Shown piece by piece: positions 56,409-60,946 of a stretch of DNA of 64,000 bases; position 1 is the first letter of the stretch, and the number at the start of each line of letters is the position of its first letter. The notes beneath the pieces were generated by a model. It worked only from the letters and a program-made list of their open reading frames with translations, was not told where the DNA came from and searched no databases. The position numbers were made by a program, and so were the translations under genes. This DNA comes from Clostridia bacterium (lineage in GTDB: Bacteria > Bacillota > Clostridia > TANB77 > CAG-465). The stretch is from contig JAZOWO010000131.1 of assembly GCA_045659265.1 (NCBI GenBank), positions 1,757 to 65,756 on the forward strand, given 5' to 3'.

Positions 56409-57914
56409 TTAACCGTTAACCGCTTTAGCAAAAAGCTTAAGCAGAGAGGTTATAGCGAGTCTGTTGTAAGGAGCAAGCTCTTGTTTGGATGCTGTCCAAC
56501 TTCTGAAGGCTTCCTTAAGGCCATCTTTTACGACATCTTCTGTAAGTTCAGAGTTTGTCTTCATAACTTCAGCGATGATGTTTTCGTAAGTGATTCGCTT
56601 AATAGAAGTAGAAGCAAGGAATGCTTCGTTAATAAGCGGATTATCTGTAGGCATACCGATTGCTTCAAGGAAGGTACGAGTATTACCTAAAATAGAACCG
56701 CCTACTTCAATTTGCTTTAGCGCATCTCCAACAACCACAAGAATAACATCTTCTGCTGTTTGTCCTTTGGGAAGGGTAGATGAAACAACTTCAGAAGGAG
56801 TAGTTGTGGGATTGCTGGTTTCTGCTACCAATGAGGGTTCTTCAGTAAGAATGGGTTCGCTTGCTTCGGGCTCATCTTCAAAAATCATTTCGGGATCGGT
56901 GTCTTCAATATCTTCAAAGAGATGTTCGAAGTTTGCGCTGTAGTCTCTTGCTTTTGGAAGCAGTGTAACCAAATCGTACAAGAAATTAGGCTTTGCTTTT
57001 CCTACCACTGTCTGAAGTCTTTCTGCGCGCAGGTAGCGACCTTTATCCAGAAGAGCGGTGCCGCCGTAGTATTGCTCGTAGTAGTAATCTACATCGACAT
57101 CTCTGTGGAAGGTAATGTATACCTTTGCATCAATATCTTCGGTAGCTTTAGTGATAGGAACAATGTATACCATTTTGTCTGCGGTGATATCAAGGACGAT
57201 GCCAAGAACATGGCTGCCGTTGATTTCGCGCGGAAGATGAGTGCCGAAGTAACAGTCTACAACATCACCAACAGAGAATTCGATGATATTGGGGTCGGTG
57301 TACTTAAGACTCATCTCGCGAATCGCTGTCCAAATGTGGTTTACGATTTCTTTTTCGTTTCCGCATTGCTTATACATTGCCCAATAAGCTGTTCTAAGAA
57401 GCTTGTTCATAGCAGCTTCGATTGCAGGGTTCTGGAATTCGATTTTCTTAACGATAAGATCGTCTTCGCTCTGAGGACCGACTACCTTTTGCTCGGGCGG
57501 GAATACTTCTATAGAAACAACTTCGCGTTCACCGCTTTCTTCGCCTTGGAGTTCTTCGGTAGGAACTTCGCATCCTTCAGGGTGCTCTTCGGAAAATTCT
57601 GTGACAGAAACTACCTCGCGGTTGTCGCTAGGCTCCGTAGTTCCTTCAGGCGGAAATTCCACAATAGAAAGAACAGTATCTTCTTCGGGGAATTCTTCAT
57701 CTACAAGGTTGTCTACTTCTACACCCAAGAGTACATAGTACTCATTGATGAGATCAATAACAGGATCAATGAGATCGTCATGGACGTTCTCAACGGTGAC
57801 ATAACCGTTTTCTACATCAAGATAAAGCTTGCACTTTATCTTAGTAACCGCTTTAAGGAGCGGAGATATGTTTCCATCTTTGGGGCCGTTTACTTTAAAT
57901 GTGAGTCTATTCAT
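56409..57914 (-). CDS. Multidomain protein, paralogue B: a divergent MazF/PemK-like domain and a Spo0A-C-like C-terminus. GC-rich island.
   Basis: The middle region …VGDVVDCYFGTHLPREINGSHVLGIVLDITADKMVYIVPITKAT… fits the PemK/MazF pattern GD…G.E…RP.vV…P.T. The C-terminus …LEAIGMPTDNPLINEAFLA… parallels Spo0A_C. Its N-terminus is paralogous to the next gene. Confidence 0.5.
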   Translation of the reverse strand: MNRLTFKVNGPKDGNISPLLKAVTKIKCKLYLDVENGYVTVENVHDDLIDPVIDLINEYYVLLGVEVDNLVDEEFPEEDTVLSIVEFPPEGTTEPSDNREVVSVTEFSEEHPEGCEVPTEELQGEESGEREVVSIEVFPPEQKVVGPQSEDDLIVKKIEFQNPAIEAAMNKLLRTAYWAMYKQCGNEKEIVNHIWTAIREMSLKYTDPNIIEFSVGDVVDCYFGTHLPREINGSHVLGIVLDITADKMVYIVPITKATEDIDAKVYITFHRDVDVDYYYEQYYGGTALLDKGRYLRAERLQTVVGKAKPNFLYDLVTLLPKARDYSANFEHLFEDIEDTDPEMIFEDEPEASEPILTEEPSLVAETSNPTTTPSEVVSSTLPKGQTAEDVILVVVGDALKQIEVGGSILGNTRTFLEAIGMPTDNPLINEAFLASTSIKRITYENIIAEVMKTNSELTEDVVKDGLKEAFRSWTASKQELAPYNRLAITSLLKLFAKAVNG

Positions 57915-59373
57915 TAACTAATTCTCCTTTGGTCTTTATTAAGTTGTTGATTAAGCGAATAAAATCGCTAGTGGGAGCTTTTTTCATCTTAAAGTTTTCC
58001 TTAACTCTTGCAACAATAAGCCTTTGGATTTCAGAAGGAACTGTTTCAGGATGAATCTTGTTTACAAGATTTGAAAGAGTTTCCAAATTGTAATACTGAC
58101 ATCTAAGACTTGCAAAAATTGCATCGTTTAAGAATTCTACACCACGTCTTGTAGCATCAAATCCGAAAATCTCAAGCAGAATCTTCACCTTATCCTTATC
58201 TGACATAGTATCACTTGCGATGTTATATATATCTTGCATATTTGCAAACTTTAACAGCTCGCGTTGAACTTCATTCAGTTCTTCGATGCTCTGTCTTACA
58301 GGTACAGGTTTGGGTGGTTCTGTCTTAATTTTAGAAATTTGCTTTTCTCTAGGATCGTAATCCTGATCTTTCCTAAAAGTACTCTTTTTCTTCTTTTTAG
58401 GAGTGGGTGCAGGGGTCGCGATTTTAACCTTAGGTGCTGTAACTTGTTTTGTAGATTGAGTAGTCGGACTTTTAGCTGGTACATTAACAGGTTGCTTGCT
58501 TGTAATGGCAGGTCTCGTTTCCTTAACAGGTGTAACGATTTTGACTTCATCTTCTTTTTCCTCTGTTGTGAGACTTAAAGAAGTACAGATGAAGCTTGAA
58601 AGCTCATCCATAAAAGAATCTGTCATTGTACCTAAATACTGCATAAAGCGGGTTTTGTCTACTGTCTGAATTTGTTCTGCAAGAGCAGTACTATATCCAG
58701 AAGAAAGACCATTGATAGCTTTAGGATAATCCACCATATTTTCTTCCGTAAATTTGAAAGTATAATGGGTGGGAAGATACTTAGGCTTATACCTTGTAGT
58801 AAAAGGAATTACAATTGTGGTAGGAGAGTATTTATTTCCTTTATCGTTTTGGATGACAATAACAGGTCTAACACCTCCTTGCTCGGAACCGATTGCATCA
58901 CCTAAATCGCAACGATATATTTGACCTCGTTTTACAAGTCTAGGTTTATGCGGCTTTTCTGACATAGTAATTTCTTCAACTACGGGTTCTGCAGATTGTT
59001 CTTCAATTTCAGGTTCGATACAGATGGTTTCTGAAGTTGCTTCTTGAACAGGGACTTTTTCTTCATCCTTTTTAGCTTGAATAGAAGTATCTGAAGCATG
59101 AATGTTGTGGTGTGCTTTTGCAATAAACATTGGTGTGGGATTTGTTTTGTTATACGAGTAATTAATAAAGTTTGTTTTACTAGTATAATTCTGTACACCA
59201 ACAACAGTTACCATACTAGCAAGTGAGTCTAAAAGTTCGTCGGGTAATGTGCCATCGAGGTAAATGGTATCGTTATCAATCTTTGCTTTAATTTTGTATT
59301 TTACCAGCAATTTCGTGACTTCGCATACATTTACATCTTTAGAAAGTAATAGTAACAAAATCTGTTCCTCCAT
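57907..59373 (-). CDS. Multidomain protein, paralogue A: an N-terminal domain, a complete EndoA/MazF-type mRNA-interferase domain, a K/P/T-rich linker and a Spo0A C-terminal-like DNA-binding domain
   Basis: Residues about 143-270, [61 protein letters not shown]…[13 protein letters not shown]…, are near-colinear with B. subtilis EndoA ([47 protein letters not shown]…KLPTHVEI…LLEQIRTIDKQRL). The C-terminus …[19 protein letters not shown]…[16 protein letters not shown] resembles Spo0A_C (…GVPAHIKGYLYLREAI…KAKPTNSEFIAMVADKL). It overlaps paralogue B by 8 nt. Confidence 0.6.
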   Translation of the reverse strand: [488 protein letters not shown]

Positions 59374-59571
59374 GAGTTTATTTGTTTTAGCGCGATTTCT
59401 TTTCTGCTACAACATAATTTTTTCTCCTTTTAATAATATATTTTTTGCCGTCTAACATAGTAAGTTAGACCAAAGACAAAATTGCTCATACATTATACCA
59501 CAAAGTTATGTAAAATACAATAAAAACGCATACTTTACAGTATGCGTTAAAATCTCATATTATATATTTGA

Positions 59572-60804
59572 TTATTTTATTATTAATTTAATAAATACTT
59601 TTTTACCTTTTTTAAGGACAACATAGCCTTTTTCAAAGTCTGCTAAGTTTAATTTCTTAAATACATCTGTAACTTTTTCATCATCTAAAGAAACACCGCC
59701 ACCAGTTATTAATGTTTTACCTTCACCTTTAGATTTAGCAACGTTTGCAGCAACCATAACATCTAATAATCCTATAGTGCCATCTACAAATGAATCTTTT
59801 GCTAATTCTACAGTTGGCATATTATCTGCGTTTTGTCTGTTTTCAAATAATTCTTCAGCAGTTTGTTTAGCTTTAAGAGCTTCTTCTTCACCGTGAATTA
59901 ATTTAGTTATTTCAAATGCAGCTATTTTCTTAGCTTCGTTAATGTGTTCATCTTTTAAGCTAGATAGTCTGTTAACTTCATCCATTGGAAGGTAAGTTAA
60001 AGATCTAAGTACTTGGTTAACTGATGCATCTTCAATGTTTCTCCAGTATTGGTAGAACTCGTATGGAGTAGTCTTTTCTGGATCTAACCATAAAGCACCT
60101 TTAACTGTTTTACCCATCTTAGTACCATCTGAGTTAAGAAGTAGTGGGCAAGTTACACAGAAGCTTCCGCTTTTATGTATCTTTCTAATTAAGTCTACAC
60201 CTGCTAGCATATTTGACCATTGGTCATCGCCACCAATTTGTACTCTACAATTTTCTGTTTCAAATAACTTTAAGAAATCGTAACTTTGCATTAACATATA
60301 GTTAAGTTCAAAGAATGTAAGACCTTTTTCCATTCTCATCTTGAAACATTCGGCATCAAGCATTCTATTTACATTGAAATGAACTCCATAAGTACGAATG
60401 AAATCCATGTAGTTTAGATTTAATATCCAGTCAGCATTGTTAACTATTATAGCGGCATTTTCACCTTCGAAAGAAACAAATTTGCTAACTTGTTTTTTAA
60501 TTTTCTCCACATTGTTATCTATGTCTTCTTTTGTTAACATTTTTCTCATATCAGACTTACCAGATGGGTCTCCTATTAAAGCAGTACCACCACCCATTAA
60601 AAGTATTGGTCTATGACCATGCTTTTGGAAGTATGACATAATCATTAAAGGCATAAAGTGACCAATGTGAATACTGTCAGCAGTTGGATCGATGCCTAGA
60701 TATACTGAAAACTTCTCCTCCTTTGCTAATTTTTCAAATTCATCCTCGAAAGCTATTTGCTTTATAAGGTCACGAGATTTTAATTCTTCGTAAACTGTAT
60801 TCAA
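59572..60804 (-). CDS. tyrS: Tyrosine--tRNA ligase
   Basis: It has the HIGH (DPTADSIHIGH) and KMGKT motifs. A TTG start (MNTVYEELKSRDLIKQ) is preferred because it lies 8 nt after the RBS aaaggag. Confidence 0.9.
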   Translation of the reverse strand: MNTVYEELKSRDLIKQIAFEDEFEKLAKEEKFSVYLGIDPTADSIHIGHFMPLMIMSYFQKHGHRPILLMGGGTALIGDPSGKSDMRKMLTKEDIDNNVEKIKKQVSKFVSFEGENAAIIVNNADWILNLNYMDFIRTYGVHFNVNRMLDAECFKMRMEKGLTFFELNYMLMQSYDFLKLFETENCRVQIGGDDQWSNMLAGVDLIRKIHKSGSFCVTCPLLLNSDGTKMGKTVKGALWLDPEKTTPYEFYQYWRNIEDASVNQVLRSLTYLPMDEVNRLSSLKDEHINEAKKIAAFEITKLIHGEEEALKAKQTAEELFENRQNADNMPTVELAKDSFVDGTIGLLDVMVAANVAKSKGEGKTLITGGGVSLDDEKVTDVFKKLNLADFEKGYVVLKKGKKVFIKLIIK

Positions 60805-60946
60805 ATGTATCACTCCTTTCATATAATTGTACATGTCTGTAACAATTTACCTAATGAGTATATCACATTTTGCTTTTTTTTCAACGATTTAATTGAAAAA
60901 TGCCCATATAAATGATAATATATACGAAGTTAGGGGAGGGATAATC

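Follow-up and report, generated by a model that had tools for sequence, protein, structure and literature searches.

A MazF-type endoribonuclease domain, Spo0A-C-like domains and a degenerate paralogue combined in a two-gene operon of gut Clostridia

In the textbook picture a MazF toxin stands on its own as a small protein and is countered by a small MazE. What, then, might a MazF-like domain be doing inside a large protein with a DNA-binding-type domain, encoded next to what looks like a full-length degenerate copy of that protein? The question is raised by two genes, A and B, found in a 64-kb window (the whole stretch of DNA analysed), and our tentative answer is a two-gene module that is self-contained, is probably autoregulated and follows a toxin-antitoxin-like logic. 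Their coordinates, strand and lengths match those of a preliminary description of this DNA:

57907..59373, minus strand: gene A, open reading frame of 488 aa as listed
56409..57914, minus strand: gene B, open reading frame of 501 aa
56326..56357, minus strand: intrinsic terminator with a 14-bp stem, closing the A-B operon (terminator scan and sequence)

The overlap between A and the downstream B that had been reported is present, amounting to 8 nt (57907-57914; ORF check) shared by the stop of A and the start of B. The true start of A is probably the TTG at 59358, which would yield a protein of 483 aa, since GGAGG lies 8 nt upstream of it and most homologues begin with MLLLL or MLQLQ. In 23 of 24 loci B directly follows A; the stop and start codons often overlap, and the flanking genes differ. 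Adjacency of the two genes is strict and their translation is coupled. The earlier remark that no MazE-like ORF is adjacent holds for both flanks, neither of which contains a MazE-sized ORF, and the sole partner of A is the 501-aa B. No DNA repeats were detected by TRF in either gene. A 331-aa ORF on the plus strand (56922-57917) is nested within B and was judged to be a likely by-product of the composition of B rather than a gene.

Three domains can be delineated in A:

59176..59358, minus strand: conserved N-terminal domain (aa 6-66), a conserved block in the A family alignment
58570..58938, minus strand: MazF/PemK endoribonuclease domain (aa 146-268), active-site residues present (Pfam and EndoA profile match)
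57910..58296, minus strand: C-terminal Spo0A-C-like helical DNA-binding-type domain (aa 360-488)

The first of these had been described as an unknown domain of about 140 aa, but the conserved block spans only about 62 aa and is followed by a variable linker; its fold is probably ferredoxin-like (beta-alpha-beta-beta-alpha-beta). A search of a 5.8e9-protein database with the N-domain profile returned only 7 short fragments, one of which (P0312) is located upstream of apparent split gene pieces. The EndoA/MazF domain proposed for A was borne out: Pfam PemK_toxin (PF02452) matches aa 148-264 at E=1e-23 (84 bits, cutoff 23.1), the A family profile matches B. subtilis EndoA (4mdx) at E=1.7e-27, and the domain possesses the MazF/CcdB SH3-like barrel fold. 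Of the two EndoA motifs previously read in A, the 10-residue one is literally present, but 'KLPTH' is in fact YLPTH. Residues R169, E164, T/S192 and N180 of A are equivalent to R25, E20, T48 and N36 of MazF-Bs, all of which are reported to be required for activity (PMC8634880), and each of the four is retained in 32/32 relatives (as T or S in the case of position 192), down to about 35% identity. A is thus predicted to carry a catalytically competent MazF-type endoribonuclease. UACAU occurs in the A mRNA at 0.51 of expectation, but a control motif, TAGAT, is equally depleted, and the depletion is therefore only suggestive.

B is organised along similar lines:

57708..57914, minus strand: N-terminal ferredoxin-like domain (aa 1-69)
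57297..57437, minus strand: B-specific two-helix hairpin (aa 160-206), N-terminal to the barrel (AF2 and conservation)
56946..57281, minus strand: degenerate MazF-fold domain (aa 212-323), with Val236 at the Arg position
56412..56762, minus strand: C-terminal Spo0A-C-like helical domain (aa 385-501)

BLASTP detected no significant match between A and B, so that profile and structure methods were needed to relate them. The two families are collinear over 262 columns by hhalign (E=8.8e-5), and their MazF domains alone match each other, profile against profile, at E=5.8e-5. The proposal that B is a paralogue with all three regions is accordingly upheld as far as collinearity goes, but not for the N-domains, the similarity of which is not significant in sequence comparison (E=0.15). 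A divergent and possibly non-catalytic MazF core had also been suspected in B, and indeed the position of the catalytic Arg is occupied by Val in 26/30 relatives, Ile in 3 and Thr in 1; the Thr is kept (T255, 28/30), and a conserved replacement motif, GDVVDCxYGxHLxxEINGxH, characterises this pseudo-MazF domain. D220, C221, H226, E230 and H235 make up a conserved cluster in B that might bind a metal. Pfam PemK does not match B of the window, yet it matches 20 of the 30 B relatives (best E=8e-7). B is best described as a probably catalytically dead MazF paralogue. It is not a decaying pseudogene, since relatives down to about 29-38% identity still share 27 invariant columns in spite of the substituted Arg. 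The hairpin, with helices at 163-181 and 187-205 according to AF2 and with W178 and A179 invariant among relatives, has no counterpart in A, and the linkers of B are long, disordered and acidic.

The C-terminal domains of both proteins adopt the Spo0A effector-domain fold, and this match is unique and strong. At the sequence level the link is transitive: the A C-domain profile matches P0282 at E=1e-5 in a search of 1.84e9 proteins, and P0282 is itself a Pfam Spo0A_C protein (PF08769, E=2.7e-12, 47 bits, cutoff 25). Direct searches yielded less. PF08769 matches neither A nor B of the window at E<=1 and only 1 of 32 A relatives (E=0.02), it matches P0242, a natural fusion of the two C-domains, under the cutoff (E=0.0086), and the A C-domain profile finds no Spo0A among PDB sequences by HMMER. 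The suggestion of Spo0A-C-like domains in A and B has thus survived on the fold and on the connection through P0282; of the two Pfam families named for this pair in the preliminary description, PF02452 is found in A and PF08769 does not exceed its threshold. The pair are not Spo0A orthologues. Response_reg is absent from A and B of the window, from the 32 A relatives and from the 30 B relatives, the N-terminal parts being a ferredoxin-like domain and a MazF fold instead, and the C-domain profile recovered no Spo0A-sized response regulators among the 1.84e9 proteins.

The distinctness of the match to the Spo0A effector domain raises the possibility, which we find doubtful, that A and B constitute a heteromeric transcription regulator of the Spo0A-C type, with both C-domains (C_A and C_B) essential, controlling its own and possibly other promoters and involving no toxin-antitoxin relationship. 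Dimerisation of Spo0A is governed by its receiver domain, and the MazF and pseudo-MazF folds could comparably act above all as a scaffold for dimerisation and/or as an accessory in RNA sensing or processing. The invariance of the catalytic residues in A, however, argues for a kept enzyme activity and not for a mere scaffold.

The region upstream of A contains the following elements:

59492..59520, minus strand: predicted A-B promoter, with -35 TTGTAT (59520-59515), a 17-nt spacer and extended -10 TGgTATAAT (59500-59492) (sequence)
59500..59514, minus strand: conserved box TTTACATAACTTTGT, a candidate operator that occupies the spacer between -35 and -10 (alignment and window scan)
59450..59470, minus strand: hairpin GTCTAAC-TTACTAT-GTTAGAC in the 5' UTR (leader folding comparison)
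59359..59449, minus strand: rest of the 125-nt leader, with an A-rich tract, SD-like AAAGGAG, a mini-ORF and the true SD (sequence)
59415-59407, minus strand: mini-ORF ATG TTG TAG (sequence)
59371-59367, minus strand: true SD of A, GGAGG (sequence)

The predicted promoter, the box and the leader hairpin are all conserved. The layout TTGaaa-17-TGnTATAAT aligns in 23/23 loci; the exact -35/-10 pair of the operon was not among the output of a consensus promoter scan. A single perfect match to TTTACATAACTTTGT is found in the window, at the A-B promoter. The 14-mer TTTACATAAYTTTG is present in 16 loci, 15 of which have a single copy, at the A promoter (L009 has one extra copy). In distant loci the box is situated just after the -10, at the transcription start. 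A conserved 14-nt candidate box overlaps the promoter or the transcription start in 16 loci, where an operator for MazEF-like autoregulation would be expected to lie; both positions are typical of repressors and for this reason were counted in favour of an operator and of a toxin-antitoxin-like module. The lack of a second TTTACATAACTTTGT site in the 64-kb window speaks against a regulator of other promoters.

The leader hairpin resides at the same position in 20/20 leaders, although its stem sequences are unrelated. Its z-scores range from -2.2 to -5.1 (mean -3.4), with at most 4% of shuffles equalling it. RNAalifold found no pairs on the MAFFT leader alignment, in which only 8/20 hairpins share column pairs. 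Rfam revealed nothing credible, either in the leader at a relaxed E-value or in the whole window at gathering scores. The upstream SD-like AAAGGAG (GGAG at 59427-59424) is exact in 19/20 aligned leaders. A hairpin fixed in position but differing in its stems would suit a scheme in which the leader is the real target, MazF and pseudo-MazF binding or cutting their own 5' UTR, at the hairpin and at blocks with UACA, in post-transcriptional autoregulation and the helix-turn-helix being secondary. The conserved blocks UUUACAUAA and AUAUUACAAG of distant loci do contain UACA, the core of the sites of Firmicute MazF (PMC8634880). In the clade of the window, however, the TTTACATAAC box falls within the promoter spacer, which is not transcribed, and UACA is missing from the leader RNA; this favours a DNA-level role for the box. 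We regard the leader scheme as quite improbable.

The carriers of the pair are uncultured gut Clostridia of humans, mice, rabbits and ruminants, and the family is narrowly spread: a search of 1.84e9 proteins gave 98 representative clusters. At least one carrier lineage possesses dpaA and is therefore probably a spore-former, a setting congenial to a Spo0A-type regulator. The order tyrS-A-B-znuBCA is maintained in six related MAG loci. A and B diverge faster than the adjacent genes (76-91% identity, compared with 95-98% in TyrS), and GC3 of A and B exceeds that of the flanks in nearly all lineages. Of the GC-rich, codon-atypical island bounded by terminators that had been noted here, the raised GC and the flanking terminators are confirmed, but a foreign insertion is not supported: the synteny, the GC3 raised in nearly all lineages and the absence of phage or plasmid relatives of B are all at odds with it, and on the first two counts recent horizontal transfer was rejected as the source of the raised GC. 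Clade synteny rather suggests vertical inheritance, as would befit a regulator, for which the fast evolution and raised GC3 would nevertheless be unusual if it were a core one.

Such composition, together with rapid evolution, variable architectures and a conserved MazF effector, might also be expected of an anti-phage or abortive-infection module, in which a latent RNase A checked by B would be released by a phage cue through the N or C domains; multidomain toxins with partner proteins are reported to recur in defence (PMC11980606). We consider this improbable. PADLOC-DB v2 contains no family matching A or B at E<=1, PHROGs recovers only MazF-like families, no copies of B were found in phages or plasmids, the sampled neighbourhoods, with their stable synteny beside tyrS and znuABC, do not resemble defence islands, and the spread is narrow. 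The same stability and absence of phage, plasmid and PADLOC matches also weigh against a toxin-antitoxin-like module, as they are unlike typical mobile toxin-antitoxin loci and the mobility and patchiness of canonical MazEF.

Natural variants bear on the matter from both sides. Fusions of C_A to C_B without pseudo-MazF and N-domains (P0240, P0242) indicate that the two C-domains act together. P0240, which has an active-looking MazF, C_A and C_B, also lacks the hairpin and a neighbouring B, and L019 combines an intact A, catalytic residues included, with an internally deleted B remnant. Both come from MAG assemblies, and the activity of A in them is a prediction; on their evidence the partner is not indispensable as in canonical MazEF, and the strict version of the model, in which B masks A, is weakened. 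The MazF domain is missing from A in L024 and P0266, which keep the N-domain and C_A, and L024 retains a full-length B. These cases count against a toxin-antitoxin-like module and imply that the remainder of A and B has a role beyond toxin neutralisation. Among the variants seen, the parts most often kept are C_A, C_B and the leader, as a regulator would require, and L019 shows that an intact A is tolerated without an intact B; yet L019 has C_A only, so that C_B is not absolutely constant.

On balance we still favour, tentatively, the toxin-antitoxin-like module, in view of the catalytic residues being invariant (or T/S) across 32 relatives, the position of B after A amid differing flanking genes, the fast evolution of the pair, the acidic disordered linkers of B, the lack of MazE, and the known occurrence of tandem MazF/MazF-CcdB neighbours (PMC2701414). 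A would consist of a MazF RNase tethered through flexible linkers to the small N-domain and to a Spo0A-C-type helix-turn-helix, and B of the same three folds plus the extra hairpin, the RNase being dead. The two would join, each domain with its counterpart, in a hetero-oligomer whose paired C_A and C_B occupy the conserved box of the operon's promoter and in which B, by its pseudo-MazF, helical hairpin or acidic disordered linkers, restrains the RNase of A. A signal, sensed by the ferredoxin-like N-domains or acting through turnover of B, would then free RNA cleavage. The domain assignments of the preliminary description (MazF in A, degenerate MazF in B, Spo0A-C-like in both) thus stand, its interpretation only in part. 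Unlikely as we think it, A and B may even represent a new heteromeric regulator class of gut Clostridia, a Spo0A-effector-type pair hard-wired to a sequence-specific mRNA endonuclease, one complex acting on genes both at promoters and through transcript cleavage. Such a pair might compete with or complement Spo0A at entry into sporulation or stationary phase, with dead MazF and N-domains as the switch and the structured leader in a new autoregulatory circuit.

The combination of MazF with Spo0A-C, already unfamiliar at first sight, has no description in Pfam, in NCBIfam (where MazF/ChpB matches are weak and sub-threshold), in PADLOC, in PHROGs or in the searched literature. What it adds is a conserved family in which an active-looking MazF within a large DNA-binding-domain protein is paired with a full-length, apparently dead copy, and which may couple the cutting of RNA to the control of genes. 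If B restrains A, a pseudo-toxin would serve as antitoxin, operator binding having moved to Spo0A-type domains. Should the pair act chiefly as a regulator, an RNase toxin fold would have been domesticated into a transcription-factor complex, and the Spo0A effector domain, studied until now for the most part in the master regulator of sporulation, would gain a new context. The variants (MazF-less A, C_A-C_B fusions, intact A with deleted B) provide a ready-made dissection, and the conserved box and hairpin are concrete experimental targets.

Among known systems, the central domain of A is a close relative of EndoA/MazF-Bs, which pairs with EndoAI/MazE (ydcDE): the 10-residue motif and the blocks NDxGN, SPT, LPTH and EQIxTxDKxR are common to both, the equivalents of R25, T48, E20 and N36 are kept, and A-B is likewise a translationally coupled two-gene operon with its own predicted promoter. 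It differs from MazEF in that the MazF domain is embedded in a three-domain protein of about 485 aa, the toxin-type protein itself carries the Spo0A-C-type DNA-binding domain, and the place of a MazE (AbrB/RHH) gene is taken by a 501-aa paralogue with a presumably dead MazF fold; both MazF folds also contain an insertion absent from EndoA, which reads FxxENMxDY in A and FxxPxDVxY in B. Compared with Spo0A (effector domain PF08769; 1fc3, 1lq1), A and B have no receiver domain, and the sequence of their candidate operator, TTTACATAAYTTTG, differs from the 0A box (TGTCGAA). Fusion of a toxin domain to extra regulatory or sensor domains is familiar from EzeT and CapRel-SJ46. It also typifies the multidomain RelE/ParE defence toxins (PMC11980606); all of these belong to other toxin superfamilies with other partner domains, and none is known to combine MazF with Spo0A-C or to have a full-length pseudo-toxin paralogue. 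A further parallel is the solitary MazF-mx of Myxococcus xanthus, which is under the developmental transcription factor MrpC (PMC2701414). There, too, a MazE-less MazF is tied to a transcription factor and serves a cellular programme instead of an addiction module (PMC2701414), but MazF and regulator are separate proteins encoded apart, whereas in A a DNA-binding-type domain is fused to the MazF, and a probably dead paralogue, B, is presumably co-transcribed.

Gene A and gene B, whose names also serve for their protein families, lie where the preliminary description had placed them, as two adjoining minus-strand ORFs (A before B) in which the A stop and the B start overlap by 8 nt. The terminators it had reported on either side are likewise present, and neither intergenic space beside the pair contains a MazE-sized ORF, in line with its statement that no MazE antitoxin is adjacent. 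The features of the window are as follows.

59572-60834, minus strand: tyrS
59548-59525, minus strand: terminator of tyrS, the gene upstream of A on the same strand
59359-59520, minus strand: promoter and leader of A; the same region lies upstream of A in the other loci (L001-L024, L032)
59470-59450, minus strand: leader hairpin
57907-59373, minus strand: gene A, ORF of 488 aa
56409-57914, minus strand: gene B, ORF of 501 aa
57210-57281, minus strand: family-specific motif of B (aa 212-235)
56357-56326, minus strand: terminator downstream of B, with a 14-bp stem

No Shine-Dalgarno (SD) sequence precedes the ATG listed as the start of A (59373), and a GGAGG (59371-59367) sits 8 nt 5' of a TTG at 59358. 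Because of this spacing, and because most or nearly all homologues start at an equivalent MLLLL/MLQLQ, the true start is probably TTG 59358, giving a predicted product of 483 aa. An antisense ORF of 331 aa inside B (56922-57917, plus strand) is most likely a by-product of the higher GC content and few stop codons of B, and no gene. The space upstream of tyrS is only ~58 nt (tyrS region, 59572-60892), and neither a T-box or other Rfam family nor a tRNA gene was detected anywhere in the 64-kb window. Since the tyrS genes of Firmicutes usually carry a T-box leader, a tyrS without one is unusual.

The MazF domain of A was confirmed: Pfam PemK_toxin covers aa 148-264 (E=1e-23), and the family A profile (32 relatives) matches Bacillus subtilis EndoA (4mdx; E=1.7e-27), with identity block by block. 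In MazF-Bs and MazF-Da, residues R25, T48, E20, G18 and N36 are reported to be essential or conserved (PMC8634880). Their family A equivalents R169, T/S192, E164 and N180 are each present in 32/32 relatives and G162 in 25/32, so that the nuclease site has been under purifying selection down to ~35% identity; judged by these residues, the MazF domain embedded in A is RNase-competent. Of the N-terminal domain of ~140 aa described earlier, only the first ~62 residues form a conserved block, the rest being a variable linker. The most conserved part of the protein is its last ~130 residues, the C-terminal domain (C_A). For this domain the Spo0A-C assignment holds as fold and distant homology and does not extend to the Pfam family in its present model: Pfam Spo0A_C does not match A and hits one of the 32 relatives at E=0.02, and HMMER found no match for the domain among PDB sequences, but when 1.84e9 representative proteins were searched with its profile, it was linked (E=1e-5) to P0282, a 148-aa protein with a bona fide Pfam Spo0A_C domain (E=2.7e-12). 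Among those proteins the C-domain profile retrieved only 98 representative clusters; nearly all of them have the A architecture, and none has the size of Spo0A. Nothing resembling a receiver domain was found.

BLASTP of B against A is not significant and the window B has no Pfam match; PemK is matched in 20/30 of its relatives (best E=8e-7). Comparison of the two families by hhalign yields one collinear alignment from MazF to the C-terminus (262 columns, E=8.8e-5). Domain by domain, the profiles match for MazF (E=5.8e-5) and for C_A against C_B (E=0.011, versus 0.07-0.4 for mismatched-domain controls), and the N-domains do not match significantly (E=0.15). Both proteins carry Spo0A-C-type domains, and the claim that B is a paralogue of A stands from MazF onwards but lacks sequence support for the N-domain. 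Since A and B share an insertion absent from EndoA (FxxENMxDY in A, FxxPxDVxY in B), their sequences are consistent with duplication of an ancestor already modified. The full-length model of B predicts three folded domains with disordered acidic linkers between them (71-148 and 335-379); structural matches of its N-domain (βαββαβ) are LarC2-C (7.2), TT1725 (7.1), Atox1/HMA (6.7) and ACT (6.6). In the window B, the acidic linker (57480-57680, aa 79-145) contains three V(V/L)S(I/V)xEFxxE(G) peptide repeats (VLSIVEFPPEG, VVSVTEFSEEHPEG and VVSIEVFPPEQ), which are confined to the close clade; TRF found no DNA tandem repeat behind them.

The MazF-like core of B, already noted as divergent, keeps the fold and has lost the catalytic Arg, which is replaced by Val in 26, Ile in 3 and Thr in 1 of 30 relatives; the Thr equivalent is retained. 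B is no decayed copy: 27 of its columns are invariant, it has a hairpin of two helices of its own ahead of the barrel (W178 and A179 do not vary), and a replacement motif is conserved. This motif, SxGDVVDCxYGxH226LxxE230INGxH235, occupies the loop bearing the active site in MazF. Its residues D220, C221, H226, E230 and H235 vary little or not at all and could bind a metal or another ligand, or form a new catalytic centre. That znuABC lies next door is probably a coincidence in this respect, its synteny with the pair being particular to one clade.

In 5.8e9 clusters, 168 relatives could be detected for family A and 74 for family B. All named carriers are gut MAGs of uncultured bacteria labelled 'Clostridia bacterium' or 'Clostridium sp.', from sheep, goat, rabbit, mouse and human. 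The genes are tightly coupled and co-inherited, B directly following A in 23/24 loci, and the tyrS-A-B-znuBCA order is kept only among close relatives (the window and L001-L006), more distant lineages having different flanks. A role in phage defence is unlikely; PADLOC has no match for the pair. Nor is the pair mobile, tblastn having detected no B among 50,697 phage and 72,556 plasmid records. The GC-rich island of the preliminary description is real (0.35-0.45 across the pair versus 0.27-0.31 in the flanks) and is not a sign of recent acquisition by this genome: because A and B exceed their neighbours in GC and GC3 (~0.2-0.4 versus 0.10-0.21) in nearly all lineages (window, L001-L024), raised GC is intrinsic to the module. 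Both proteins also evolve faster than their neighbours (identity 76-90% for A and 83-91% for B versus 95-98% for TyrS). UACAU is ~2-fold depleted in A ORFs, as is the control motif TAGAT.

A promoter, TTGaaa-17-TGnTATAAT, and a ~125-nt leader are common to all 23 loci and persist across lineages with differing flanks; the promoter box and leader hairpin are specific to the A-B module. The box, as the 14-mer TTTACATAAYTTTG, is present once and only once, at the A promoter, in 15/16 loci having it; L009 has one extra copy. That second exact copy (TTTACATAACTTTG, L009 5571-5584, minus strand), with ~1.4 kb around it free of large ORFs, may be a further target site or a chance occurrence. In the window the sole perfect 15-mer (59500-59514) fills the -35/-10 spacer, and in distant loci the box lies directly 3' of the -10. 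Because it falls within the RNA polymerase footprint in both clades and is transcribed in only one, its placement favours a DNA operator, for which it is a candidate. Autoregulation centred on the leader RNA is quite improbable. The hairpin is found at a fixed position in 20/20 leaders (z -2.2 to -5.1, mean -3.4), its stem sequences are unrelated and out of register in the alignment, and Rfam has no match to the leader. An SD-like AAAGGAG is conserved 3' of the hairpin, upstream of the true SD, and is followed in distant loci by TTACAAG...TTTGTAAC inverted half-sites.

Natural variants lie at the following loci.

L024, 8013-8690: A without its MazF domain
L032, 3123-4358: P0240, a fusion protein
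L019, 9053-9230: B remnant
L023, 7752-8378: third paralogue

The A-type protein of L024 and the A-type protein P0266 are both missing exactly the MazF domain (N-domain, linker and C_A; 225 aa), and in L024 a full-length B adjoins; translations there also suggest VapB- and VapC-like ORFs just 5' of A. P0242 is a C_A-C_B fusion (283 aa), and P0240 (411 aa) joins MazF, C_A and C_B without N-domains or pseudo-MazF, the Arg-less fold of B; no B lies nearby, and its leader has the same conserved architecture. Its contig also encodes an ECF sigma factor, rqcH and dpaA, the last of which makes this lineage probably a spore-former. In L019 an internal deletion joins the first ~8 codons of B to the last ~40, A being intact; a putative tRNA-like sequence and thrS follow, with a SigH-like sigma factor encoded 5' of A. 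The L023 paralogue, from the same MAG as L009, has 208 aa (A-type N-domain and MazF-like domain, no C-domain), altered catalytic positions (Arg to Lys, Thr to Met) and no partner gene. What persists most is the pair of C_A and C_B together with the leader; at least one lineage lacks MazF, and the same holds for pseudo-MazF and for the N-domains.

The best-supported reading, itself tentative, is a toxin-antitoxin-like, autoregulated RNase/pseudo-RNase pair. A and B would associate via their paralogous domains, C_A/C_B would bind the promoter box, B would restrain the nuclease of A, and a signal would free it. The main rival, somewhat less likely, is a heteromeric Spo0A-C-type regulator with the MazF folds as scaffold or accessory. 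It fits the natural variants at least as well, but the invariant catalytic residues of A argue that cleavage matters.

The three-domain architecture is firmly established and a surprising one for a specialist in toxin-antitoxin systems or sporulation; its family is narrow, known from MAGs alone, and named only 'hypothetical protein' in databases. Full-text literature searches found no description of a MazF-Spo0A-C architecture or of a full-length pseudo-MazF partner; the components are familiar, and neither their combination nor the pairing of paralogues nor the leader is described. Multidomain toxins are known for RelE/ParE (PMC11980606), and a survey counted 43 cases of MazF adjoining another MazF/CcdB gene (PMC2701414). 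Part by part, Firmicute MazEF comes closest for the MazF domain alone, and the effector domain of Spo0A comes closest in fold and distant homology alone; the nearest concept is the solitary MazF-mx of Myxococcus, which the transcription factor MrpC controls (PMC2701414).
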